64,000 nucleotides of DNA from Chloroflexota bacterium (lineage in GTDB: Bacteria > Chloroflexota > Dehalococcoidia > Dehalococcoidales > UBA5760): contig JADFUW010000002.1 of NCBI GenBank assembly GCA_015222205.1, positions 1,303 to 65,302 of the forward strand, written 5' to 3'. The notes beneath the pieces are model-generated. The model was not told the origin of the DNA and did no database searches. It saw only the letters and a list, made by a program, of their open reading frames with translations. A program made the position numbers and the translations under genes. This document shows, one piece after another, positions 949 to 43,340 of the stretch (within the stretch, counting starts at the first letter, position 1; each line of letters begins with the position of its first letter).

Positions 949-3537
949 ATGAGAGAAGGTTTAACCCCTATCCGTCAGCAATATCTCAGGATAAAGAGGA
1001 ATTATCACGAGGCTATTGTCTTCTTCCGCCTGGGGGATTTCTACGAGACCTTTGATAAGGATGCTGAGCTTACCTCTCGGGAGCTGGATATTGTGCTGAC
1101 GTCCCGGGAGATGGGTAAGGGGCATCGGGTGCCTATGGCTGGTATTCCCTATCATGCCCTGGATAACTATCTGGCGAGGCTTATTAGTAGAGGCTATAAG
1201 GTTGCTATCTGTGAGCAGGTGACCAGGCCCGGTGAGACGAAGGGACTGGTTGAGCGTGGTGTGGTTCGAGTGGTAACGCCAGGCACGGTAATTGAGCCGG
1301 CTCTTCTTGACGGTAACGCCAATAATTATCTGGTCAGCCTCGTTTTAGGTGATGATGCGGCTGGTATAGCCTATGTTGATATAACCACCAGCGAGTTTGC
1401 TGTTACTCAACTGCCCCGGGAGCGGGCTAACGCTGAACTGGAGCGGCTTAAACCATCGGAGATTATTACGGCGGAGAGTGCTGAACTACCTGATTTAGAA
1501 TTAAAGGCTCCGCTAACCCGGCTTGAGGATTACTGCTTTGAGCTAGAGACGGCCCGCCAAACAGTGCTGGAGCATTTTGGCGTGGCTACCCTTGATGGCT
1601 ATGGCTGTAGTAACCTGCCCCTGGCGATAAGTGCTGCTGGGGCAATCATTCACTATCTTCAGGAAACACAGAAAGGGGTTCTGGGACAGCTAACCCGGCT
1701 TTCTACCTACTCCACTGGTTCATTTATGGCGCTGGATATGCAGACCCAGAGAAACCTGGAGCTATTCCAATCAAGCCGTCTGGGCACTGCTGAGGGCTCA
1801 CTACTATCGGTTATTGACCTGACCAAGACGCCTATGGGAAGTCGGCTATTAAAGAAGTGGCTGGGGCAACCCATACTTGACATAACGGAACTGACCAGGA
1901 GACAGGAGGCTATTGGCTGGTTCTTTGATAATACCCTGGCTCGCAACCAGACGGTTTCCCTGTTTAGCGAGGTGGCTGACCTGGAGCGGTTGATAAACCG
2001 GGTGAGGGGTGATGTGGTTAGTCCGCGTGAGCTAATAAGCCTGAAGCGCAGCCTTGAGGTTATTCCCAAGCTCATAGAGGTAATTACGGCTGGTAAAAGC
2101 AGTAATAGTATTAGCTGGCTCAAGGATAAGCTTAAGCCTCGTCAGGATGTAGTTGACCTGATTACTGAGGCAATAGAGGAGACACCGTCATCAGCTCTGG
2201 GGGAGGGTGGTGTGGTGAGAAAGGGTTTTTCTGAGGAACTGGATAGCCTTTGTCTGGCGTCTAGGAATGCCAAGCATTATCTGGCTAATCTGGAGCGTCA
2301 GGAGCGAGACAAAACGGGAATTAAATCCTTAAAGATAGGCTTTAACAATGTTTTTGGCTACTATATTGAGGTATCCAAAGCTAATCTCGGTCAGGTGCCG
2401 GAGCATTATATCAGAAAGCAGACACTGGTAGGGGCTGAGCGCTTCTTCACCCCGGAGCTAAAGGAGTATGAATCACTGGTTTTGAATGCCCGTGACAGGA
2501 TTAGCGAGCTTGAGTCTGAGCTGTTTCATCGGGTATGTCGCCAGATAGCTACTGCTGGCGAGCGCATCCTAGCCGTTGCCAATGCCCTGGCGAGCCTAGA
2601 TGTCTTCTCCAGCCTGGCTGAGGTGGCGGTGCGTTATGACTACACTAGGCCCAAGCTAACCACGGATAGTGAAGTGGCTATCACTCAGGGACGCCACCCG
2701 GTAGTTGAAAGGAGCTTGACCTATAAGGGCTTTGTGCCCAATGATGCTCATCTTTCCAATGGTGATGCCCAGCTTATTATCCTCACCGGGCCCAATATGT
2801 CAGGCAAGTCAACCTACTTGAGGCAGGTGGCGTTAATCGTCCTTCTGGCACAGACAGGCAGCTTTGTCCCCGCTGATGCGGCAACTATTGGCCTGGTGGA
2901 CCGTATCTTTACCCGGATTGGTGCCGGGGAAGATATTGCCGCCGGTCAGTCTACCTTTATGGTGGAGATGGTGGAGACGGCCAATATCTTAAATAACGCT
3001 ACCCCTCGCTCACTGATTATCCTGGATGAGATTGGGCGGGGCACCAGTACCTACGATGGGCTGTCCATTGCCCGGGCAGTCTGTGAGTATATCCATAATG
3101 CCTCCAGACTGGGGGCGAAAACCCTCTTTGCCACTCACTATCATGAGCTGGTTGAGCTGGCTAGTTTCCTGCCCCGGGTGAAAAACTTTAATGTGGCGGT
3201 AACCGAAGAAGGGGGTAGGGTGGTCTTCTTGTACAAGATTGTGCCGGGCGGGGTTGATAGGAGCTATGGTATCCACGTAGCGCAGCTAGCGGGCTTACCC
3301 AAATCGGTGGTGCACCGGGCACACGAGGTACTGGAGGAATTGGAGGAGGCTAGCCGAGCTACAGGGGCTAAGCCCTTACCCAAGAGGCGCGGTAAGGAGG
3401 TAGCACGGCAGCTAACATTCTTCGGGCAACAATCACCGGTGGCTGAAGAGCTAGAAAAGCTGGACATTAATTCCTTAACACCTCTGGAGGCTCTCACCAA
3501 GCTCTACGAACTGCAACAGAAGGCTAAGGAGGGGTAG
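949..3537 (+). CDS. mutS: DNA mismatch repair protein MutS
   Basis: 862-aa ORF. N-terminal mismatch-binding motif (TPIRQQYLRIKRNY..FFRLGDFYETF), Walker A GPNMSGKST and STFMVEM..DEIGRGTSTYDG are all typical MutS signatures. Confidence 0.97.
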   Translation: MREGLTPIRQQYLRIKRNYHEAIVFFRLGDFYETFDKDAELTSRELDIVLTSREMGKGHRVPMAGIPYHALDNYLARLISRGYKVAICEQVTRPGETKGLVERGVVRVVTPGTVIEPALLDGNANNYLVSLVLGDDAAGIAYVDITTSEFAVTQLPRERANAELERLKPSEIITAESAELPDLELKAPLTRLEDYCFELETARQTVLEHFGVATLDGYGCSNLPLAISAAGAIIHYLQETQKGVLGQLTRLSTYSTGSFMALDMQTQRNLELFQSSRLGTAEGSLLSVIDLTKTPMGSRLLKKWLGQPILDITELTRRQEAIGWFFDNTLARNQTVSLFSEVADLERLINRVRGDVVSPRELISLKRSLEVIPKLIEVITAGKSSNSISWLKDKLKPRQDVVDLITEAIEETPSSALGEGGVVRKGFSEELDSLCLASRNAKHYLANLERQERDKTGIKSLKIGFNNVFGYYIEVSKANLGQVPEHYIRKQTLVGAERFFTPELKEYESLVLNARDRISELESELFHRVCRQIATAGERILAVANALASLDVFSSLAEVAVRYDYTRPKLTTDSEVAITQGRHPVVERSLTYKGFVPNDAHLSNGDAQLIILTGPNMSGKSTYLRQVALIVLLAQTGSFVPADAATIGLVDRIFTRIGAGEDIAAGQSTFMVEMVETANILNNATPRSLIILDEIGRGTSTYDGLSIARAVCEYIHNASRLGAKTLFATHYHELVELASFLPRVKNFNVAVTEEGGRVVFLYKIVPGGVDRSYGIHVAQLAGLPKSVVHRAHEVLEELEEASRATGAKPLPKRRGKEVARQLTFFGQQSPVAEELEKLDINSLTPLEALTKLYELQQKAKEG

Positions 3538-3629
3538 GGGCGGGTTATTGTGCCACTAGAATTCTAGATTCTATAAAAATACATCAGCTCAGGCTGGCTA
3601 TAGAAAGGCGCAAGAAAAGGAGGTAAGAG

Positions 3630-4199
3630 GTGTCCCAGTTCAGATCAAAAGAAGTGGAGAGGGAAGCAGTACGAATGACCGCAGTCATGATGGCATCGAG
3701 TGCTAGGACGGCTCCCAAGGCTAGAGGTCTTGATGCTATAGAAACAATGATTGTCGATGGTAGTGACCTCGAACTTCTGGTAAGTGCTATGGAGGATAAG
3801 GCGAAAGAGCAACCACCCTACCTTTCTTCAATCTTTGACAGGGATGCTCGCAATGTCAGAAACTCCAGTTGTGTATTGTTAATAGGGGTTGTGGGTAACC
3901 CCAAGAAGATTGAGGAATCGTTAGACTGCGGTGCCTGCGGCTACAAAACGTGTAAGGATTTACTCAATGTGAGGAAGCGTGAGGGAAAGGACTTTAGTGG
4001 CCCTATTTGCATATTCCAAGCACTTGACTTAGGTATTGCTCTAGGTTCAGCCGTCAAACTGGCTAGCGGACTCAACGTCGACAACCGCATGATGTACACG
4101 ATTGGGGCGGCGGCGAAGAAATTGCACCTCTTGGATTCTGACATCGTTATTGGTATCCCGCTATCCGTATCCGGTAAGAATATCTATTTCGATAGGTGA
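3630..4199 (+). CDS. DUF2148-like protein (uncharacterised ferredoxin-domain family, COG4739-like)
   Basis: 189 aa, GTG start preceded by AAAGGAGG. ARTAPKARG, CGACGYKTC and GIPLSVSGKNIYFDR match my recollection of the DUF2148 family consensus. Sits between two copies of the mutS 3' end. Confidence 0.7.
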   Translation: MSQFRSKEVEREAVRMTAVMMASSARTAPKARGLDAIETMIVDGSDLELLVSAMEDKAKEQPPYLSSIFDRDARNVRNSSCVLLIGVVGNPKKIEESLDCGACGYKTCKDLLNVRKREGKDFSGPICIFQALDLGIALGSAVKLASGLNVDNRMMYTIGAAAKKLHLLDSDIVIGIPLSVSGKNIYFDR

Positions 4200-4242: not shown

Positions 4243-4362
4243 GTCTTTGGGCAAAAATCACCAATATTAGACGAGCTGGAGAAACTTGACATAAACTCAC
4301 TGACGCCCCTTGAGGCCCTCACCAAGCTCTACGAGCTGCAGAAGAAGGCAAGGGAGGGGTAG
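4243..4362 (+). pseudogene. orphan second copy of the mutS 3' end (39 codons + stop)
   Basis: Encodes VFGQKSPILDELEKLDINSLTPLEALTKLYELQKKAREG*, against FFGQQSPVAEELEKLDINSLTPLEALTKLYELQQKAKEG* at the mutS C-terminus (3418-3537). The alignment is gapless and codon-for-codon. No mutS body lies upstream of it. Confidence 0.85.
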
Positions 4363-4375
4363 GGGGGGATTATCG

Positions 4376-4870: not shown

Positions 4871-6058
4871 TCACAATGTTGGAGACTCGAAGGAAATATT
4901 CAGGTCCCCTATTTGAATACCAGATGTGTCGCCGATATACAGTGGTAAAGGCAAGACATCTTTATGCATATTATCATATTGTTCTAGAACTTTTACTTTC
5001 AGTTCCATAAGTTCTGGGGTAAATGTAATGGCGAATTTACTATTCCTGATTAACTCGGCCTTTGAAGATCGGTCTTCTCTTTTCTTTGTCGTGTCCTCTA
5101 ATGAACTCTTTGCATGGTAGAACTGGGACCTAACACGCATATCTTCAATTTTTGCTTTGGCTTTCGGTATTTCCTCTAGCTCTTGTAGCTCTTTACTGAG
5201 CTTCTCTATCTCAATAGAGTAAGAATCAATTTCCTCCAATAGCTCATTGTATTTGGATTCTAGTCTCTTAATAATCACTTGCATATCTGTTAAACATGAC
5301 CTAAGTAATTCTCTAGTGTCGGCTAGCGAAAAGAATAGATATTCCCTCCGCTCTGGATGCCCGAAACCGGTAAACACTGTGTCATTTATGTCATCGTCTA
5401 AAAACCAATTATAGTCCTTCTTCTGATAGCCATTTATCTCTATCGAGCGTATAAACAAGCGTAGTGATATGAGTTCTTCACGTTGATATCCAGCCCTGTC
5501 TTCTTCAGTAATTTTTGCTGCGTCTTTTAGAGCCTTATCTAACTCAGCGGAAATATTTCGAGGCGTGTACTTAATAGTATCATGCGTTTGTATGTTGAAA
5601 GCTAATTCTTGTCCTTCCTTCTGCAAGGGGATTACATACTTGCCTAATGCAGTCATTAGGCCATATTCATAGTAGACATTTGGGTTAGGGATATTTACCT
5701 TCCTCCCGTTTATTAGTTCCATAGTATCATCCAGTATTACAAGGCAAAATTGCGATTCTATTATTTTCCCACATATTTTTGTACAAAATATGTCCTGTCC
5801 ATAAGCTCTCTCTTTGATTGCGATTACAGGTTCAATACCGATTTTTGTAAGTTTTTCAATAATTAGAGCGAGTATAGTTTCTACTTCTTCCTCAGATGGG
5901 CAAGCAACAAAGCATGATTTTGAGGCGCCAAGAAACTTCCCGCAAGAATGGTCTTTGCGAACAAAACATTTAGGGATCTCTCTGAATTGAGTTGATTGTT
6001 GCATTTCCGGAAAGCGTAAAAACCCTCTATTATATCTATAAAATCTGTCCATACTCAT
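4871..6058 (-). CDS. hypothetical protein: N-terminal TIR-like / nucleoside 2-deoxyribosyltransferase-like Rossmannoid domain + C-terminal coiled coil
   Basis: 395-aa ORF, AT-rich. Residues ~48-165 (SCFVACPSEEE..KIGIEPVIAI..QFCLVILDD..NPNVYYEYGLMTALGKYVIPLQKEG) follow the strand/helix pattern and the N-x-x-x-E-x-G-x(4)-GK-x-V-x-L motif of TIR-like (Cap12-type) and N-deoxyribosyltransferase-like domains as I recall them. Residues ~255-330 are a heptad-rich K/E/L coiled coil. Confidence 0.45.
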   Translation of the reverse strand: MSMDRFYRYNRGFLRFPEMQQSTQFREIPKCFVRKDHSCGKFLGASKSCFVACPSEEEVETILALIIEKLTKIGIEPVIAIKERAYGQDIFCTKICGKIIESQFCLVILDDTMELINGRKVNIPNPNVYYEYGLMTALGKYVIPLQKEGQELAFNIQTHDTIKYTPRNISAELDKALKDAAKITEEDRAGYQREELISLRLFIRSIEINGYQKKDYNWFLDDDINDTVFTGFGHPERREYLFFSLADTRELLRSCLTDMQVIIKRLESKYNELLEEIDSYSIEIEKLSKELQELEEIPKAKAKIEDMRVRSQFYHAKSSLEDTTKKREDRSSKAELIRNSKFAITFTPELMELKVKVLEQYDNMHKDVLPLPLYIGDTSGIQIGDLNISFESPTL

Positions 6059-6104: not shown

Positions 6105-6235
6105 TGCCATTGTTTACATGCTTATACCACACACCTCACTCACCAAAGGGGTTAAAGGGGCGTTAGACCCTTAAAGAACAGCTTCCCCCTCTCCTTATCA
6201 AGGAGAGGGGGACTAAGGGGGTAAGGTTACAATGT
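6105..6235. repeat. composite palindromic intergenic repeat, copy B
   Basis: Perfect 13-bp inverted repeat TCCCCCTCTCCTT-ATC-AAGGAGAGGGGGA (6184-6212). Its tail CTAAGGGGGTAAGGTTACAAT resembles the tails of copies C and D. The left flank is shared with copy A. Confidence 0.8.
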
Positions 6236-24265: not shown

Positions 24266-24349
24266 TTTGGGGGCTTTGCCCCTCTTAAAATAAATCTCCC
24301 CCTTCCCCTTATTAAGGGGAAGGGGGATACAGGGGATAGGGTTAATAGA
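24266..24349. repeat. composite palindromic intergenic repeat, copy C
   Basis: Small hairpin GGGGC-TTT-GCCCC followed by TCTTAAAA. Then a perfect 15-bp inverted repeat TCCCCCTTCCCCTTA / TAAGGGGAAGGGGGA centred at 24312. Tail ACAGGGGATAGGGTTAAT. Lies between convergent trpS and the aminotransferase. Confidence 0.8.
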
Positions 24350-24362
24350 TTAGTCTTTCGGC

Positions 24363-25535
24363 CTAAGCTACTCGGTGTTTATCTAAAAATCGTTTTATTC
24401 GGGACAGTGCCTCTTCAATTTCAGCCATTGATGTAGCATAACAGGCACGGACATATCCGTCGCCCTGCTCTCCAAAGGCTGTGCCCGGGACCACGGCTAC
24501 CTTTTCCTCCATGATGAGCTTTTCCACAAAGTCCTCTGAGGTCATACCGGTGCTCTTTATTGACGGGAAGGCATAGAATGCTCCATGAGGTTCAAAGCAT
24601 GATAGACCAAGCTCGTTGAATCCCTTGACTATTACCCGGCGTCGGCGGTCATATTCAGCACGCATCTCCTCACCATCGGCATCGCCGGTTTTTAGTGCCT
24701 CTATGGCGGCTACCTGTCCCATTGTTGGTACGCACATAATAGTGTACTGGTGAATCTTGGTCATCGAGGCAATAATTTCTTTATTAGCTGCGGCGTAGCC
24801 AACACGCCACCCGGTCATGGCAAAATACTTGGAGAACCCGCCCAGGAAGATAGTGTTATCCTTCATCTCAGGCAGAGCCGCTATACAGGTGTGTTCCACG
24901 CCATAGACTAGCTTGGCGTAGATTTCATCAGAGATTATCAGTAGCCCATGATGCCGGGCCATCTCAGCTATCTCGGCCAGTTTATGTCTGGGCATTACGG
25001 CGCCGGTGGGGTTGGCGGGGTAGCCAATGAGAATGGCCTTAGTCTTGTCTGTGATTCGTTCTTCAATATCGGCGGCACTGAGTTCAAAGTTATTCTCCTC
25101 ATTGGTGGGTATCATAACTGGTGTGCCGCCAGCCATGATTATAGAGGGGACATAGGAGACATAGCATGGGTCGTGGGTAATGACCTCGTCGCCGGGGTCA
25201 AGGATTGCCCTCATGGCTAGGTCTAATGCTTCACTGACGCCCACTGTTATCAGAAGTTCGCCGTTAGGGTCATACTCTACATTATAATTATCATTCAAGT
25301 AGCGTGATAGCTCCTGACGCAGTTCGGGCATTCCTGAATTTGAGGTATAACTGGTTTTGCCCTTTTCTAGTGAGCGAATAGCTGCCTCAGTAAGATGCTG
25401 TGGGGTGGAGAAATCAGGCTCGCCCACCCCGAGTGAAATGGAGCCTTCCATGCCGGCTAACAGGTCAAAGAACCTTCGTATTCCTGAAGGCGATATCTGG
25501 TTTACTTTTTGTGAGGTAAGACTGCGAGTTTTCAT
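24363..25535 (-). CDS. pyridoxal-phosphate-dependent aminotransferase, class I/II (aspartate aminotransferase-like)
   Basis: 390 aa. GVGEPDF, NPTG and the SKYFAMTGWRVGY PLP-lysine motif are present. Confidence 0.9.
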   Translation of the reverse strand: MKTRSLTSQKVNQISPSGIRRFFDLLAGMEGSISLGVGEPDFSTPQHLTEAAIRSLEKGKTSYTSNSGMPELRQELSRYLNDNYNVEYDPNGELLITVGVSEALDLAMRAILDPGDEVITHDPCYVSYVPSIIMAGGTPVMIPTNEENNFELSAADIEERITDKTKAILIGYPANPTGAVMPRHKLAEIAEMARHHGLLIISDEIYAKLVYGVEHTCIAALPEMKDNTIFLGGFSKYFAMTGWRVGYAAANKEIIASMTKIHQYTIMCVPTMGQVAAIEALKTGDADGEEMRAEYDRRRRVIVKGFNELGLSCFEPHGAFYAFPSIKSTGMTSEDFVEKLIMEEKVAVVPGTAFGEQGDGYVRACYATSMAEIEEALSRIKRFLDKHRVA

Positions 25536-25609
25536 GTACTCCTCCTAGTGTTTATTGATATAAAGTTATACTCGTCATAGCCTGGGGTATTGCTGGCTGC
25601 TATCTGGGT

Positions 25610-25840
25610 TCAGTTATACCGTAGCTCAATTAGAGACCACTGCTTTTCAATTTCATTATAGCAAAGATTGAACAGCCTGTCATCCTTGGTTCTGACCTGA
25701 AAGCATCTTTTTTCCGGCTCCTGCCAGGTCTTTTCTACTTTATCAACTTCGTATTCTATGCCCTGCCATGCAAAAGACCTTGGCTCTTCGGCATAGGTAT
25801 ACCCTGAGTAGCAGCTAACTTTAAGATTATTCACCCCCAT
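25610..25840 (-). CDS. small hypothetical protein (76 aa)
   Basis: ORF with a plausible beta-rich sequence (PRSFAWQGIEYEVDKVEKTWQ..CFQVRTKDDRLFNLCY). No family confidently recognised. Coding status is uncertain. Confidence 0.4.
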   Translation of the reverse strand: MGVNNLKVSCYSGYTYAEEPRSFAWQGIEYEVDKVEKTWQEPEKRCFQVRTKDDRLFNLCYNEIEKQWSLIELRYN

Positions 25841-25963
25841 CCCCCTTTAGGGTTTTTATTGGGTAACTCTCCCCCTTGTGTTCCCCCTCCCTTGATAAGG
25901 GAGGGGGAAGTAGTTATATAAGGGAGGCGAAGCCTCCCTTCAACTCTCTTTAATAAAGAGTCT
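25841..25963. repeat. composite palindromic intergenic repeat, copy D (inverted orientation relative to A-C)
   Basis: 13-bp inverted repeat TTCCCCCTCCCTT-GAT-AAGGGAGGGGGAA (25881-25909). 8-bp hairpin AGGGAGGC-GAA-GCCTCCCT (25921-25939). 6-bp hairpin CTCTTT-AAT-AAAGAG (25946-25960). The reverse complement aligns with copy B, including the tail AAGGGGGAGAGTTACCCAAT. Confidence 0.8.
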
Positions 25964-25974
25964 GGCATTACCCC

Positions 25975-26003
25975 TTGACAAAAATAGGGTTAAATGTTAT
26001 AGT
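25975..26003 (+). promoter_or_regulatory. near-consensus sigma70-type promoter (TTGACA-17 nt-TATAGT with TG) pointing antisense into CDS 26118-26870
   Basis: TTGACA at 25975-25980, a 17-nt spacer ending TGT, and TATAGT at 25998-26003. A second CTTGACAAAA box lies at 26018-26027. No plus-strand ORF follows. Confidence 0.35.
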
Positions 26004-26117
26004 ATGGACGGTTAGGTCTTGACAAAAGGCAACTAAGCGTATATCGTACAAAAGAGAACATAAATTAAGTTATTTATAAAGTAGGCTGATGTTTATGATT
26101 TGCCAAGATTGGCATCC

Positions 26118-26870
26118 TTAAGTAAGTGGTTCAAAGTCGTTCCATCTCTGTTTCCATTTATCGAATCGGGGATGTTCCTTTAAGCTATTAAGTTTTTGCT
26201 TAGCTTCCTCGCGGTCTTTAGATCCTATACGAGGAAGTACATAACGAGAGAAGTAAATTGTTTCTTCTGTTGATTGTGACTCGTGAAGAGGCATTTCGCT
26301 TTTATGTTTTTTTAACAATTCTTCTAGTTCATGACCCACCTTGTAGGCTAAGTTTGTATCACCTAAGTCATGCCTCTCTGACAATGCCATTAAGTAGTTG
26401 TTAAGTGCCATTCCTTTTAATTCCCAATGGGTCTTTTCGTCAATTTCTCTAGCATAATTTACTGCCTTCTCTGCTTCGGTAACCGCATAGTCAATAAGGT
26501 AGGTGGCCGTCTTATCATGTTCATAGAGGCGACCCCACAACGGTGCGACTTTCATGTGTAGGGTGCTAAAGAAGTCGTTCTTACACTCTTCAATAGCACC
26601 GCTAAGTTCAGCCCTGAGATCACGTAATAGCATATTTCGAAGAGCCCAGCCAAGTATAGCTATTAGTACTGCCGTAAGGACAGTCAAAACTGCTATCACA
26701 ATCAAAATCACATCACGTAGAACATTATAGGCATCCTCCCCACTAGTGAGCAGAATTGGATGTTGTGAAAAATACAAATACGCAAAAAAGCCTGCTAATC
26801 CACCAAATATAACTACTAAAAGAATTAGTAAGGGCGGTAGTAATGACAGCCTCCTCGTTCTCATCGTCAT
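26118..26870 (-). CDS. hypothetical membrane protein (two N-terminal TM helices + helical soluble domain)
   Basis: 250-aa ORF, AT-rich, SD AAGGAGG before the ATG. Helices LSLLPPLLILLVVIFGGLAGFFAYLYF and VILIVIAVLTVLTAVLIAILGWAL. No family recognised. Confidence 0.6.
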   Translation of the reverse strand: MTMRTRRLSLLPPLLILLVVIFGGLAGFFAYLYFSQHPILLTSGEDAYNVLRDVILIVIAVLTVLTAVLIAILGWALRNMLLRDLRAELSGAIEECKNDFFSTLHMKVAPLWGRLYEHDKTATYLIDYAVTEAEKAVNYAREIDEKTHWELKGMALNNYLMALSERHDLGDTNLAYKVGHELEELLKKHKSEMPLHESQSTEETIYFSRYVLPRIGSKDREEAKQKLNSLKEHPRFDKWKQRWNDFEPLT

Positions 26871-26894
26871 CCTCCTTATCCTGTTTTTAATAAT

Positions 26895-26942
26895 TTATAT
26901 CTCCGGTCTCCTCTTATGCCACTCGGTTGCCTGCTGGTAGGC
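26895..26942 (-). pseudogene. orphan second copy of the gatA 3' end (15 codons + stop)
   Basis: The minus strand encodes [15 protein letters not shown], identical to the gatA C-terminus (27088-27135). 5 of 48 nt differ and all are silent (including TAG vs TAA). Confidence 0.85.
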
Positions 26943-26975
26943 GATTTTCATTTTTCACCTTTTACCAAGTAACTA

Positions 26976-27004
26976 TTGACAAATGTCTGATTATCTGATA
27001 GTCT
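26976..27004 (+). promoter_or_regulatory. promoter-like element (TTGACA-17 nt-TAGTCT)
   Basis: TTGACA at 26976-26981, a 17-nt spacer, and a weak -10 TAGTCT at 26999-27004. It lies ~30 nt upstream of the terminator hairpin. Confidence 0.25.
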
Positions 27005-27030
27005 TAAGGCTAGAATCACGACGAAAAGCA

Positions 27031-27069
27031 CCCTGTGAGGTTCCGTCCTTACAGGGGGTTTTTCTTTTT
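27031..27069. terminator. bidirectional intrinsic terminator (gatCA on minus strand; strong U-tract on plus strand)
   Basis: 10-bp stem CCCTGTGAGG / CCTTACAGGG with a 6-nt loop. It is followed by GGTTTTTCTTTTT on the plus strand. On the minus strand the hairpin is followed by TGCTTTTCG. Confidence 0.7.
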
Positions 27070-27087
27070 ATACTCCAATTTTCCACT

Positions 27088-28557
27088 CTAAATTTCCGGT
27101 CTCCTCTTGTGCCACTCGGTTGCTTGCTGGTAGGCGTAGGCAATTTTTAAGATAGTTTCCTCAGCAAAGGGCTTGCCGATAATCTGCATGCCTATGGGCA
27201 GCCCGTCGGCAAAGCCGGCCGGGATGGAGATAGCCGGCACTCCGGCGATATTTATCGGCAGGGTGCAGATATCGCTTAAATACATCTGAAGGGGGTCGTC
27301 TACCTTCTCCCCGATTTTGAAGGGGACGGTGGGGGAGGTGGGGGTTATCAGGGCATCAAATTTGCTAAAAGCCTGGTCAAACTCCTGCCGTATTAAGGTG
27401 CGCACCTTTTGGGCTTTTAGGTACCAGGCATCATAGTAGCCGGCGGACAGGGCATAGGTTCCCAGCATAATACGCCTTTTCACCTCAGGTCCAAAGCCAT
27501 ACTGGCGGGTCTTTTCCAGCGCCTCCCACATATTGTCGGTCTCCTGATAGGAGAAGCCATACTTTACCCCGTCGTAGCGAGCCAGGTTGGCTGAAGCCTC
27601 TGATGGGGCGATGATATAGTATGCCGCCAGGGCATAGGGGGTTGATGGTAGTGATACTCCCCACTCTATCTTGGCCCCCAGTTCTTTAAGTTTAGCGATA
27701 GCGGCTCGTATGGCTGTTTCTACTTCTGTCTGCATTCCCTCAACGAAATACTCCTTGGGGACACCGAGGCGAAGGCCATTAAGGTTGCCGGTTAGGCACT
27801 GAGTGTAATCGGGCGTAGGCTCGGGAACCGAGGTAGAATCTCTTGGGTCATAGCCAGCGATGGCGTTTAATACTAGGGCACAATCAGTAACATCCTGGGT
27901 TAGCGGTCCAATCTGGTCAAGGGAGCTGGCAAAGGCGACCAGACCGTATCGGCTCACCCTGCCGTAGGTAGGTTTGAGGCCGGTAACACTGCAGAAGCCA
28001 GCCGGCTGGCGAACACTGCCGCCGGTATCCGAGCCCAGGGCATAGATGGCTTCGCCAGAGGCTACCCCCACGGCTGAACCCCCACTACTTCCGCCAGGCA
28101 CGCGGCTCAAGTCCCAGGGGTTATGGGTGGGGAAGAAGGCGGAGTTCTCGGTAGACGAACCCATAGCAAATTCATCCATGTTTGCCTTACCTATAATTAC
28201 GGGGTGATGCCCGTTTAACCTTTCGACTACAGTGGCGTCATAGGGTGGCACAAAATTTTCCAGCATCTTTGATGAGCAGGTGGTTTTTATCCCTTTGGTG
28301 CACATGTTGTCCTTGATTAGCACCGGGATGCCGGTAAGTGGGTTAGTATTGCCAGTCGCAATAAGCTCGTCAGCCTCTTGAGCTTGCTTTAGTGCTAGCT
28401 CATCAGTAACAGTAACCAGGGCACTAATCTTTGGCTCGATTTCATGTATACGCGCTAGATGGGCTTTGGTTAGTTCAACTGAGGAAAGTTGCTTGGTTTT
28501 AAGTAGCTGATGTGCCTCATGGATTGTCAAATGGTTATGATTAGTTATATTACTCAC
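27088..28557 (-). CDS. gatA: Asp-tRNA(Asn)/Glu-tRNA(Gln) amidotransferase subunit A
   Basis: 489 aa. Amidase signature [20 protein letters not shown]. Located downstream of gatC. Confidence 0.97.
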
Positions 28558-28565
28558 CCCTTTGA

Positions 28566-28859
28566 TTATGTATTACCAAGTACAGCTCGCACTCTAAAGA
28601 AGTCTCCGTCCTTTCGGGGGGCATTGGCTAGAACCTGGTCTTGGGATAGGGAGGCTTGGGCTTCATCACTGCGGACTACATTCTGGAGGGCAATAGATTG
28701 GGCTGTAGGTGGGATACCAGTGGTATCTACCTGCTGTAGTATCTCAAAGCTCTCTAAGAGATTGGATAATTGCTTGCTAAACCTATTCACCTCAGCTTCG
28801 GTCAAACCAAGTCGAGCCAGGAGAGCAATATGTAATACCTCTTCGCGGCTAAGTTTCAT
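28566..28859 (-). CDS. gatC: Asp-tRNA(Asn)/Glu-tRNA(Gln) amidotransferase subunit C
   Basis: 97 aa. [14 protein letters not shown]...D is the GatC pattern. Immediately upstream of gatA. Confidence 0.93.
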
Positions 28860-41297: not shown

Positions 41298-42013
41298 AGC
41301 AGTTTAGCGGTTTCCCGGCTAAGATGCAGTTTATCCCCCTGCCCAATCTTTTCTTTAGTGCACTCTTGCCGCAAATCAACGATATGGCTGAGCTAAAGAC
41401 AACTCTATATATCTTAGCCACTCTTTACCGCAAGCGGGGCTACCCTCGCTTTGTCAGTTATAGAGAGCTATTAAGCAGCACCAGCCTGATATGTAGCCTT
41501 AAAGAAATAGCTGAGCCACCCGAAAAGTTATTGCGTAAAGCCCTGGAGATGGCGGCCAAGCGGGGCACTGTCCTTCATATAGTAGTGGATAGGGATGGGG
41601 TGTCTGAGGATATTTATTTTTTGAATACTGAGGAAAGTAGACAGGCGGTAGCTAAGATTGAGGGTGGTGAGCTTATCCTCCCTGGACTGGAAACTGCGGG
41701 GCGAACTTATCTTGGTGCCGGGGTTGGTGAGCAGTCTAACATCTTCACCCTCTACGAGCAGAATATTGGTATGCTAACCCCGATGATTGCTGAGGAGCTA
41801 CGGGAGGCGGAGAAGCTTTATCCTGCAGCCTGGATTAAGGATGCTATCAAGGAGGCAGTTAACCAGAGTAAACGCAAATGGAGCTATATTTCGGCAATAT
41901 TAGAGCGCTGGTCATCAGAGGGTAGGAGCGATGGAACCTATAGGCGAGATTCTGAAAAGACAGACCCGGATAAATACATCAAGGGCAAGTATGGGCACAT
42001 GGTCCGGCGCTAG
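41294..42013 (+). CDS. DnaD-domain (DnaB_2-type) replication protein
   Basis: 239 aa. ATGA overlap with the dnaB stop. The C-terminal NIFTLYEQNIGMLTPMIAEEL...WIKDAIKEAVNQSKRKWSYISAILERW is the DnaD C-terminal domain pattern. Confidence 0.75.
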   Translation: MKQFSGFPAKMQFIPLPNLFFSALLPQINDMAELKTTLYILATLYRKRGYPRFVSYRELLSSTSLICSLKEIAEPPEKLLRKALEMAAKRGTVLHIVVDRDGVSEDIYFLNTEESRQAVAKIEGGELILPGLETAGRTYLGAGVGEQSNIFTLYEQNIGMLTPMIAEELREAEKLYPAAWIKDAIKEAVNQSKRKWSYISAILERWSSEGRSDGTYRRDSEKTDPDKYIKGKYGHMVRR

Positions 42014-43340
42014 CGAGACTGAAGAAGACCTCCCAGGTGCAAACTGCCCTATTTGTGGCGGGGCGGGGTTTGTTCACCCTCTTCTCCCCACCGGGAAGGC
42101 CGATTTTAGTCGGGTTATCCCCTGCCGTTGTAGCCGGGAAGCCTTGGATAAGGAGCGCCAGACTCACTTGCTCAGTTACAGCAACCTGGGAGCACTGACC
42201 CGCTTCACTTTTGCCAATCTATTACCCCAAGGGAGAAGTGGGGACCCGATAAACCAGGAGCAGTTTACCCGTGCTCATGAAGCTGCCAAAGCCTTTGCTA
42301 GTCAGCCCGAGGGATGGCTAGTCCTGACTGGCCCCAGTAGCTGTGGTAAAACGCATCTAGCGGCGGCTATTGCTAACGAATGTATTAGCCGAGGTCAGCT
42401 AGCCTTTTTTATCTCTGCGCCTGACCTCCTAGACCGTCTGCGCTCTGCCTTCAGCCCCAATAGTGAAATGCCCTATGACGAATTCTTTGACCGGGTGCGT
42501 AATGCTCCGCTATTGGTTTTAGATGATTTAGGGGCTCAAACCAGTACCACTTGGGCCAAGGAAAAATTGGACCAACTGCTAAATTATCGCTTTAATAGCC
42601 AGTTACCCACGGTGATTGTTACTATTGCTCTTGTTGAACAGCTTGAGGAGCGAATACGCACTCGCCTGACCGACCCTGATTTGTGTCATATATGTGTCGT
42701 TGAGGCAGAGCCAGTCCTGTCAGAATATAGCTGGGGTCCAGAGTTCGAGCTACAAAAAACTATGACCTTTAAAAGCTTTGACCGTCGGCGGCTTAATCTG
42801 CCACCAGAGCAGCGCGAGAACCTGGAGTCAGCATTTGATTTGGCTTTTAACTTTGCCAAATCACCTGAGGGTTGGGTAGTATTTATGGGCGTTACCGGCT
42901 GTGGTAAAACGCATCTAGCGGCGGCTATTGTTAACTATTGTTATCAAGCCCAAAAGCCTGCCCTGTTCGTGGTGGTCCCTGAGTTCCTTGACCATTTGCG
43001 TTCCACTTTCAGCCCGGAGAGCAAGGTTTCCTATGACCAGCTGTTTGAAAGAATAAAGACGGCGCCGTTACTCGTTCTGGATGACTTTGGTGAGCAGTCA
43101 ACCACACCCTGGGCACAAGAAAAGCTCTATCAGGTTATTAACTACCGCTATAACGCGCGATTGGCGACAGTAATTACTGCCCGCGGTTCACTAGATGAGA
43201 TCGATAGCCCTATCAGTTCCCGGCTAGCAGACCCTAAAATAAGCACCCCATTTAATATCATCGCTCCTGATTATCGGGGTGATTTACAGTCCAGCCGGAG
43301 GAAAGTATCCCATGGTGGTAGGAAAAGGCGCTGGGATTAG
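41991..43340 (+). CDS. tandem-duplicated DnaC/IstB-like AAA+ helicase-loader protein with N-terminal zinc ribbon
   Basis: Two consecutive DnaC-like modules, each with Walker A (GPSSCGKTHLAAAI / GVTGCGKTHLAAAI) and Walker B (LLVLDDLG / LLVLDDFG). They are preceded by CPICGG...CRC. The start is ATG 41991 or 41931. Confidence 0.8.
   Translation: MGTWSGASETEEDLPGANCPICGGAGFVHPLLPTGKADFSRVIPCRCSREALDKERQTHLLSYSNLGALTRFTFANLLPQGRSGDPINQEQFTRAHEAAKAFASQPEGWLVLTGPSSCGKTHLAAAIANECISRGQLAFFISAPDLLDRLRSAFSPNSEMPYDEFFDRVRNAPLLVLDDLGAQTSTTWAKEKLDQLLNYRFNSQLPTVIVTIALVEQLEERIRTRLTDPDLCHICVVEAEPVLSEYSWGPEFELQKTMTFKSFDRRRLNLPPEQRENLESAFDLAFNFAKSPEGWVVFMGVTGCGKTHLAAAIVNYCYQAQKPALFVVVPEFLDHLRSTFSPESKVSYDQLFERIKTAPLLVLDDFGEQSTTPWAQEKLYQVINYRYNARLATVITARGSLDEIDSPISSRLADPKISTPFNIIAPDYRGDLQSSRRKVSHGGRKRRWD

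Follow-up and report, generated by a model that had tools for sequence, protein, structure and literature searches.

Fungal mitochondrial genomes harbour mobile endonuclease open reading frames (ORFs) that bring with them a duplication of the C-terminal end of the gene they occupy, as described for atp6 in Allomyces and for atp6, atp9, cox2 and nad3 in Glomus (PMC3630166). A comparable layout is described here for Dehalococcoidia, in which a cassette made of one NYN-domain nuclease gene and a predicted antisense RNA gene lies at the 3' ends of conserved genes such as coaBC and gatA. A remnant of it was found in a 64,000-nt stretch of contig JADFUW010000002.1 from a Chloroflexota bacterium (the window, meaning the whole stretch, to which all coordinates refer), where the last codons of gatA occur twice. 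This duplication is very probably (probability about 0.85) the scar of the horizontally spreading cassette, inserted at the end of gatA and later stripped of its nuclease gene. In both the mitochondrial elements and the cassette, a nuclease ORF sits in the 3' part of a conserved gene, with a working C-terminal segment upstream and the displaced native one downstream, the duplicated segments diverge from each other as orthologues would, and spread is horizontal (PMC3630166). The mitochondrial nucleases, however, are LAGLIDADG or GIY-YIG DNA endonucleases, with cleavage shown in Allomyces (PMC3630166), whereas the cassette protein is a predicted nuclease of NYN/PIN-like type. The cassette also differs in including an antisense RNA gene, in having a bacterial chromosome as its host and in that the working gene end does not clearly travel with it.

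Further parallels come from bacteria. In type I toxin-antitoxin modules such as txpA/RatA and bsrG/SR4 of Bacillus subtilis, a toxin gene is paired with a convergent antisense RNA that overlaps its 3' end. The cassette shares with these modules the convergent arrangement of a protein gene and a small RNA gene, the common bidirectional terminator, the strong consensus promoter of the RNA and the occurrence in many genomic contexts, while its stumps, with the protein gene gone and the RNA gene still there, resemble orphan antitoxins. Type I toxins, by contrast, are small hydrophobic peptides and the cassette protein is a predicted nuclease of 167 aa; to our knowledge, a flanking gene-end duplication has not been described for type I modules. 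Minimal mobile elements of Neisseria occupy hot spots of insertion between conserved genes and are exchanged through homologous recombination; they resemble the cassette in placing variable single-gene inserts between the same conserved genes with no dedicated recombinase. We know of no description of these elements, or of homology-facilitated illegitimate recombination, as leaving orphan gene ends, and of no conserved nuclease/antisense pair in either. With the latter process the cassette shares that one junction can be illegitimate (PMC3240628). An arriving module that displaces an old gene end, which is left as a remnant by a retained protective gene, is common to the cassette and to the type VI secretion system clusters of Vibrio cholerae. 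In those clusters, 3' remnants of displaced effector genes stand before the orphan immunity genes, and the difference is that the genes are effectors and immunity genes and that the remnant stems from a displaced cargo gene, not from a housekeeping gene. Orphan immunity genes in these clusters are described in PMC5361080.

Duplicated gatA end and the cassette between its copies

The last 15 residues of GatA are encoded twice on the minus strand, at 27135-27088 (the resident, functional end) and at 26942-26895 (the orphan), and the two peptides are identical. Five of the 48 nucleotides differ between resident and orphan (CAA/CAG, CAC/CAT, GAA/GAG, ATT/ATA and TAG/TAA), all of them silently. In the register 26896-26943 / 27089-27136, 44 of 48 positions agree, and a 92% match over 48 nt at a distance of 193 nt is far beyond chance. 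The longest identical runs between the repeats measure 14 nt, the orphan is the sole further copy of the gatA-end sequence within the window, and it is without one GCCTAC unit relative to gatA (KIAYAYQQ). Its stop codon (26897-26895) lies 24 nt ahead of an ATG at 26870 that opens a 250-aa ORF, across a spacer with the Shine-Dalgarno (SD) motif AAGGAGG, while upstream the orphan is in frame with an ATG (26951-26949) behind AAAGGTG, giving an 18-codon ORF. A first-pass annotation of this DNA had reported the repeat of the last 15 codons, the five silent differences and the 24-nt spacer with its AAGGAGG motif, and sequence comparison within the window bears out each of these, down to the same five codon pairs. 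Nor is the duplication an assembly artefact, given that three independent metagenome contigs join the same cassette tail to an orphan gatA end; one of them (L139) additionally shows the resident gatA end upstream of the cassette.

The cassette was recognised by scanning JGI metagenome contigs with the stems of the hairpin between the two gatA ends only (CCCTGTAAGGNNNNNNCCTCACAGGG, one 20-base pattern), which returned 45 contigs against about one expected by a rough estimate. Sequence shared well beyond the hairpin stems was found in 43 of the 45, all Dehalococcoidia-type contigs, and the definition of the cassette is drawn from contigs L101-L141, L143, L144 and L146. An intact copy (about 0.72 kb) comprises a gene for a 167-aa NYN protein, which starts about 17-25 nt past the stop codon of the host gene, a 10-bp hairpin that holds the NYN stop codon, a conserved 19-mer and a promoter on the opposite strand. 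The hairpin closes the NYN ORF in 31 contigs, with the ending …GKLE(F/Y)KKKNPL before the stop and a length of 167 aa where complete, some copies being cut by the contig end. Downstream of the hairpin follow TGCTTTTCGTCGTGATTCT, about 28 variable nt and then TTTGTCAATAG….

The match of the window to this cassette starts at GTGGAAAATTGGAGTATAAAAAG, which represents the last 12 NYN codons, and extends through the tail. It has the same hairpin as the 43 cassette contigs (CCCTGTAAGG-N6-CCTCACAGGG), with the NYN stop codon inside it and A-rich last NYN codons before it (27031-27056 and 27049-27087), the 19-mer together with TTGACA-17-TAnnnT at the characteristic hairpin distance, and a host-gene 3' end on both sides (27088-27135 / 26895-26942). 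One position of the hairpin stem is a G.U pair in the plus-strand RNA and an A.C mismatch on the sense strand. The cassette likewise stands between a working and an orphan end in L139 (gatA) and in L102, L116, L123, L130 and L134 (coaBC). From GTGGAAAATTGGAG… through the orphan, the window is colinear with L133, L106 and L139, at module identities of 95%, 89% and 86%, respectively, against 79% nucleotide identity between the gatA genes of the window and L139; the 95% identity to L133 runs from 28 nt before the hairpin to the distal end of the tail (26943). The layout of L139 is gatC, a 149-aa insert, gatA, 17 nt, the NYN gene, the hairpin, the tail and a decayed orphan gatA end, while L133 and L106 show the NYN gene, the tail and an orphan gatA end (one reading MKVAYAYQEATEWHKRKPQV before its stop), each with a different gene after it.

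No intact 167-aa NYN ORF was found anywhere in the window; only 12 of its codons remain, and the window copy is therefore a stump, like those in L110, L117, L122, L127, L134 and L138. The first-pass annotation had seen only a terminator hairpin and a TTGACA box in the 145 bp between the gatA ends: both are present, but the piece is the 3' stump of the cassette and also contains NYN codons, the 19-mer and the antisense promoter. In addition to the window, the NYN ORF is lost in 14 of the 45 contigs, counting the divergent L135 as well as L129 with its 24 remaining codons. In most stumps, 12-31 nt separate the left break from the hairpin, and the A-run, hairpin, 19-mer and promoter are retained in every stump found (the search pattern required the hairpin). 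The window stump bears marks of the gatA-site subfamily (EYKKK and the tail sequence), and its deletion is therefore independent of those in the coaBC stumps. No description of the cassette was found in the searched literature on NYN proteins with mobile elements, Dehalococcoidia or toxin-antitoxin systems; it appears to be new to that literature, and more interesting than the duplication itself.

Table 1 Features of the gatA locus in the window, in order of position.
Feature	Position	Strand	Basis or remark
DUF6504 gene	25610-25840		behind the double-hairpin repeat
Double-hairpin intergenic repeat	25870-25945	-	directly after the gatA stop in L058, L007, L033 and L011
ORF for a 250-aa predicted membrane protein, AT-rich (40.6% GC), no Pfam family	26118-26870	-	likely start 26864
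Spacer with AAGGAGG	26871-26894	-	with the 6 nt that follow, matches the spacer between gatA and the ORF in L092 exactly
Orphan gatA end, 15 codons and stop, joined to the 250-aa ORF	26895-26942	-	sequence comparison
Distal cassette tail (…AATAGTTACTTGGTAAAAGGTGAAAAATGAAAATC) with SD-like AAAGGTG and ATG (26951-26949)	26943-26975	-	alignment to relatives
Antisense promoter: TTGACA (26976-26981), 17-nt spacer, TG before the -10, TAGTCT (26999-27004)	26976-27004	+	
Conserved 19-mer AGAATCACGACGAAAAGCA, predicted single-stranded 5' part of the antisense RNA	27012-27030	+	exact in the window
Predicted antisense small RNA, about 55 nt, ends inferred	27012-27069	+	folding, promoter conservation
10-bp hairpin CCCTGTAAGG-ACGGAA-CCTCACAGGG	27031-27056	both	A-run and T-run flanks, shape of a bidirectional terminator
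NYN ORF stump SGKLEYKKKNPL, then stop (TAA 27051-27049, inside the hairpin)	27049-27087	-	last 11 residues equal the C-terminus of the gatA-site NYN proteins of L139, L133 and L106
Resident (functional) repeat copy, last 15 gatA codons and TAG	27088-27135	-	sequence comparison
gatA, 489 aa as listed, Amidase family	27088-28557	-	gene list and synteny in Dehalococcoidales relatives
gatC	28566-28859		upstream of gatA

The closest relatives of the window's GatA (at most 85% identity) come from metagenome-assembled genomes of Dehalococcoidia/Dehalococcoidales, and exact-protein look-ups of GatA, the 250-aa ORF and the aminotransferase returned no identical record. Gene order is kept among the Dehalococcoidales relatives (NfeD on the minus strand, gatC, gatA, DUF6504, aminotransferase, trpS on the minus strand). 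The gap between gatA and DUF6504 ranges from about 20 bp (L006, L012 and L020) to 4.2 kb (L037), a variability in length that marks it as an insertion hot spot. In the loci of 80 relatives, blastn-short found no other orphan gatA end, and a second copy of the 145-bp piece was absent from these loci as well as from the window; a protein-level search of the relatives' loci found a single orphan gatA end, the decayed one in L014. This copy (L014 7270-7410; 78% GatA identity) is an independent decayed orphan, reading …DYE-stop-AIKWHKRRPNI-stop about 520 nt downstream of gatA. It lies behind an unrelated glycine-zipper-like ORF whose 3' end is apparently fused in frame to the gatA remnant (GLAIG… versus GLPIG…), and is followed by the ancestral double-hairpin repeat and then DUF6504. 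The gatC-gatA gap is a second insertion hot spot within the usual operon, measuring 0 to about 1.5 kb in relatives (variable in L003, L004, L012, L014, L015, L016, L022, L023, L026, L037 and L139, the last with its 149-aa ORF).

Further sequence is recognisable at the distal end of the cassette in some contigs. In L109, L118, L126 and L140 (about 80 to 115 nt past the hairpin) and in L110, the tail ATG is followed by 11-14 codons like the N-terminus of a serine recombinase, MK(I/T)TA(I/T)YCR(I/V)S, after which similarity stops; these codons may be the relic of a recombinase gene that once stood beside the cassette. As a candidate decayed coaBC orphan, the end of the tail matches L102 at 15 of 24 positions; L109 and L110 suggest another candidate origin, the beginning of a serine-recombinase gene that has since been lost. 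The SD-like motif and ATG of the tail were also considered as a device coupling translation to the downstream gene and rejected, being in frame with the orphan at only about 5 of 12 informative loci.

Spread of the cassette, its nuclease and its predicted antisense RNA

The arrangement coaX-coaBC-cassette-(other genes)-valS accounts for 33 of the 45 contigs, the gatA site for three (plus the window) and a position beside a convergent yqeY-like gene for five, the others being divergent copies (two contigs) and probable chance matches (two). At the coaBC site, the cassette separates the working coaBC end from an orphan of 41-121 nt (80-91% identity); over all sites the repeats measure 40 to about 120 nt at 80-92% identity. 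The NYN gene is less diverged than the gene it follows, with a synonymous divergence (dS) of 0.49 versus 1.42 for coaBC in the same genome pairs (lower in 45/45 pairs), and the NYN start codon is the exact point at which mean pairwise identity steps up, with 0.60-0.74 before it and 0.85-0.93 after it. The cassette is therefore more recent than the host genes, and it has passed between species to enter the same sites. NYN lineages cluster by site, the gatA-site copies sharing 96-97% identity among themselves and 84-91% with the others, except for the divergent L131 (67%); L128 has a gatA-type NYN C-terminus, yet lies upstream of valS. The coaBC-valS gap varies in content between contigs, as the gatA-DUF6504 gap does. 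A gene of about 316 aa (MLLIDGVKYELWTP…KAGDKIRFTVIEPMKKYRF) often lies in it (L119, L127, L129, L130, L144 and L115), and partial C-terminal copies of this gene occur upstream of the cassette in L119, L124, L125 and L127, so that the coaBC-valS hot spot holds more than one kind of remnant.

The cassette protein matches PF01936 (NYN) at E 3.4e-16. Its structure model (pLDDT 89.4) has a PIN-like alpha/beta fold whose best fold match is the NYN protein 2QIP (TM 0.73), with the T5 flap endonuclease (T5 D15) among the distant matches. Residues D12, D87, E89, D110 and D112 are invariant in 22 intact copies, and in a 47-member family alignment reaching down to 60% identity D12, D87 and D112 are still invariant, with E89 and D110 at least 90% conserved. 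A ratio of nonsynonymous to synonymous divergence (dN/dS) of 0.065 among intact copies indicates strong purifying selection. At E ≤ 1e-20 the family runs to 2,740 clusters; 120 of these were listed, almost all with a length of about 167 aa, and the names given by the sources are generic ('NYN domain-containing' or 'LabA/DUF88'). No NCBIfam model was found for the protein, its PADLOC match was only to the generic 'NYN', and no copy was found in the viral contigs searched.

On the opposite strand, TTGACA is present in 43/43 cassette copies, followed by a 17-nt spacer that is variable in sequence, fixed in length and usually ends in TG-n, and by a -10 box TAnnnT in 38/43 (TATTCT in 17). The distance from the -10 box to the hairpin is 25 nt in 37/43 copies and 26 nt in the window. 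The predicted transcript would consist of AGAAUCACGACGAAAAGCA, the hairpin and a U-run, with a folding energy of -26 kcal/mol for the window sequence (z = -3.9), and would be antisense to the 3' end of the NYN message. The hairpin is also kept, with one compensatory change of G-C to A-U, in a homologue of 60% identity that lies elsewhere, between mutS2 and pemK, and so are the GCTTTTCGT..CGATTCT block and a TTGACA-17-TATTAT promoter. Comparison by eye of the 5' part of the RNA with NYN codons 8-14 gave a 7-nt seed only, in a stretch constrained by the protein. Rfam returned no match for 25500-27300 at gathering or permissive thresholds, the sole matches across the window being tmRNA and tRNA-Pro. 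The first-pass annotation had taken the TTGACA box for the promoter of a module that uncoupled the 250-aa ORF from gatA, a reading that fails on orientation: the box is on the plus strand (26976-26981) and the promoter faces the hairpin and gatA, away from the ORF, for which a consensus scan found no promoter on the minus strand. In annotation, the hairpin after gatA is accordingly to be labelled as cassette-derived, and no promoter function for the 250-aa ORF should be assigned to the TTGACA box.

Origin of the two gatA ends and competing explanations

In several relatives the gatA stop codon directly meets a double-hairpin repeat, and the window DNA between gatA and this repeat is therefore inserted material; to judge by these relatives, the repeat marks what would be the ancestral gatA-downstream sequence before the DUF6504 gene. 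The repeat (GAGGGGC-n-GCCCCTC, then TCCCCCTCC-n-GGAGGGGGA) is G+C-rich and dispersed, occurring in the window at 835-851, 6184-6212, 24269-24327 and 25870-25945 with no Rfam family match there. It recurs at gene boundaries across Dehalococcoidales, often edging inserted genes, and stands before valS in L103, L117, L124 and others.

The inserted material includes the 250-aa ORF, which is poorer in G+C than gatA (40.6% versus 52%). The AAGGAGG motif abuts its first ATG (26870), so that the second (26864) is the likelier start; the public record P0001 has 248 aa. Its family is small (17 proteins in the protein collection) and patchy, being absent from the loci of the 80 relatives. In L090, a complete gatA is directly adjoined by a homologue of this ORF. 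In L092, a gatA end at the contig start is followed by a 30-nt spacer identical to that of the window and then by the ORF, with 81% identity to the window over 877 nt that continues into the double-hairpin repeat. Further homologues have TTGACA/TATAAT promoters of their own and no gatA upstream. Given the adjacency in L090 and L092, gatA followed by the ORF is likely the older arrangement, into which a piece of about 190 bp came, and the orphan most probably represents the earlier end of gatA, with its first neighbour still in place. One of two models in the first-pass annotation had proposed this order of events; its inserted piece has turned out to be the degraded end of an NYN cassette and not a bespoke module of replacement end, terminator and promoter.

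The differences between the two ends also bear on their history. Under target duplication followed by neutral drift of the orphan, about 30-35% of the differences would be expected to be silent, whereas all five are silent in the window (P about 0.002). Pooling the window with seven coaBC loci gives about 32 silent and 20 replacement differences (ratio of nonsynonymous to synonymous differences per site, pN/pS, 0.18; P about 9e-5). The coaBC orphans still read (K/S)REVA(D/E)(K/R)ILD(K/R)V(V/A)(G/E), and they are no nearer to the working copy of their own genome than to those of other genomes. A further repeat in the window doubles the last approximately 130 nt of mutS 825 nt downstream (3419-3548 and 4244-4373), with a DUF2148 ferredoxin-domain gene (3630-4199) between the copies. 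Here 31 of 120 coding nucleotides differ, 20 silently and 11 with replacement (pN/pS 0.17), and silent sites are near saturation, so that the mutS orphan resembles the working end of a fairly distant lineage. The first-pass annotation had grouped gatA with mutS as a second case of one pattern, which is apt for the silent bias but not for the cassette, since neither it nor its hairpin was found at the window's mutS repeat. Given the silent-biased differences at gatA, coaBC and mutS, both copies look like former working ends from different lineages, which points to recombination between lineages.

Beside the mutS repeat lies an AT-rich (37.9% GC) ORF of 395 aa (4871-6058, minus strand) with weak matches to the CAP12/Pycsar TIR domain (E 0.0015) and to coiled-coil families, which may be an imported defence-type gene. 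A 91-nt direct repeat of 75% identity (42293-42383 / 42851-42941), with a Walker-A-like GCTGTGGTAAAACGCATCTAGCGGCGGC, lies inside the 469-aa ORF 41931-43340 and looks like an internal duplication of an ATPase domain.

In the explanation favoured here, the two gatA ends bracket the remains of a small selfish cassette, which in Dehalococcoidia occupies a few fixed sites, chiefly at the 3' end of coaBC but also at that of gatA. In the window it would have sat in gatA until the NYN ORF was deleted down to its last 12 codons, so that the antisense unit and the hairpin now form a sequence with the shape of a terminator behind gatA. At each site the initial event must have been illegitimate, and the duplication would be created or renewed when a cassette-bearing allele recombines into a cassette-free related genome with one crossover within the repeat, the recipient's own gene end becoming, or refreshing, the orphan. 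Both copies would thereby be former working ends, hence their silent-only differences.

Several points weigh against this explanation. The cassette has no recombinase or transposase to account for the initial duplication of 40-120 nt, and the window itself has no NYN gene, so its deletion is deduced from relatives. The search pattern fixes the hairpin stems, which makes hairpin-less copies invisible and means that stem conservation among the 43 contigs is not independent evidence, and the coaBC cores used in the pooled test of silent differences were picked by similarity, which favours well-kept orphans. The orphan of L139 is decayed (with an in-frame stop) and the differences in L116 are mostly replacements, so the silent-only pattern is not universal. 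Identity in coaBC stays at 0.69-0.74 up to its stop codon, the working end not visibly travelling with the cassette, and a simple model in which the cassette carries a replacement end therefore fits poorly. For the older arrangement, L092 has just 94 nt upstream of the ORF, and 4 nt alone separate a true gatA from the cassette junction. Transcription of the antisense RNA and toxicity of the NYN protein are both predictions from sequence.

Among the alternatives, the second model of the first-pass annotation, in which the 250-aa ORF was imported together with the last approximately 50 nt of a foreign gatA, by one homologous and one illegitimate join downstream of the resident gatA and its terminator, is unlikely. 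The low G+C content of the ORF region, the patchiness of its family, the intact donor-type gatA-spacer-ORF junction in L092 and L090 and the silent-only differences, which suit an imported working gene end, would all agree with it, and homology-facilitated illegitimate recombination is a documented route (PMC3240628). Against it, L133, L106 and L139 share with the window the junction of tail and orphan (…GGTGAAAAATGAAA|RTCGCCTAC…) but have other genes after the orphan, and the orphan therefore belongs to the insertion of the cassette and not to the arrival of the ORF; moreover, the 145 bp are a cassette stump, whereas the native gatA-downstream sequence of relatives is the different double-hairpin repeat. 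In a variant of this model, the ORF could have come in later, through an exchange whose crossover fell within the orphan. Less probable is a site-specific integrative element with a tyrosine or serine recombinase, the repeats then being attL and attR at the gatA 3' end of an element since mostly deleted (a remnant of cis-mobilisable type). Duplication of a gene 3' end with a replacement end supplied by the element is typical of such elements, for example ICESt1 at fda, reportedly also of the Dehalococcoides ssrA islands, and the serine-recombinase-like codons after the tail in L109 and L110 would fit. None of the 31 NYN-bearing copies, however, has a recombinase between the repeats, the insert being one 167-aa nuclease gene; the repeats vary from 40 to about 120 nt at 80-92% identity, and no defined identical core beyond about 14 nt is apparent in them; and no integrase was seen near gatA in the window.

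The least credible explanation is local slippage or tandem duplication of the gatA end, with the 145 bp as ordinary intergenic DNA, or a mis-assembly. Close short direct repeats can arise by slippage and the missing GCCTAC unit is a change of that type, but cassette copies in unrelated contigs match the intervening DNA at 86-95% identity, the same architecture recurs in independent assemblies and five silent differences out of five are improbable for a drifting copy. A transposon target-site duplication does not fit the variable repeat length of 40-120 nt or the silent-biased differences; terminal inverted repeats were not noticed in the aligned cassette ends, though no search aimed at inverted repeats was made.

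Improbable, but of wider interest, is a homing-type element, in which the NYN protein would cut cassette-free gatA or coaBC ends and repair would copy the cassette in. The working end, nuclease ORF and orphan native end of L139 match the layout of the mitochondrial elements, in which a foreign C-terminal segment comes in and the native one stays downstream (PMC3630166). A nuclease ORF between inserted and native C-terminal segments is thus seen in L139 and implied in L133 and L106, the window having the stump only. The cassette is at the same site in species that differ much more in their host genes than in the cassette itself, NYN lineages sort by site, and the PIN-like fold includes DNA flap nucleases, T5 D15 being among the fold matches. 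Characterised NYN proteins, on the other hand, are RNases as far as is known, a conserved antisense RNA is not known as a feature of homing elements, donor and recipient alleles must meet in one cell, and L128 carries a gatA-type NYN C-terminus upstream of valS. A foreign C-terminal segment travelling with the element was not found either, as coaBC ends stay at 0.69-0.74 identity up to the NYN start and the two peptides of the window are identical.

Possible functions and implications

That the NYN nuclease and the antisense RNA form a toxin/antitoxin-like addiction pair is a tentative proposal, to which we give rather less than even odds. It is suggested by the convergent gene pair with its common terminator and consensus RNA promoter, by purifying selection on the nuclease, by the position of the cassette in variable regions (once by pemK), by the RNA unit being kept in every stump found and by the direct repeats, which favour deletion. 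Addiction would stabilise an insertion that could otherwise be deleted via its own flanking repeats, and would explain why stumps that have lost the nuclease always keep the RNA unit. With far less confidence, and as the main alternative, the cassette may be regarded as a new self-propagating element, in which a homing or break-inducing PIN-like nuclease acts at the 3' ends of essential genes (coaBC and gatA) and is curbed by its own antisense RNA; each invasion would then leave a displaced gene end behind. Were this so, the homing endonucleases would gain a new nuclease fold, and the mitochondrial mobile ORFs a bacterial counterpart.

An orphan gene end together with the hairpin and the 19-mer is a marker of past invasion by a cassette common in Dehalococcoidia metagenomes, and the NYN gene with its conserved convergent antisense promoter forms a concrete two-part unit that can be tested. 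If it is an addiction module, RNA-antitoxin systems would come to include a nuclease as toxin, as well as a phylum for which none is described in the searched literature. The mostly silent differences of the orphan ends at gatA, mutS and coaBC suggest how single genes enter streamlined genomes without dedicated recombinases, through recombination between lineages with a junction inside a conserved gene end.

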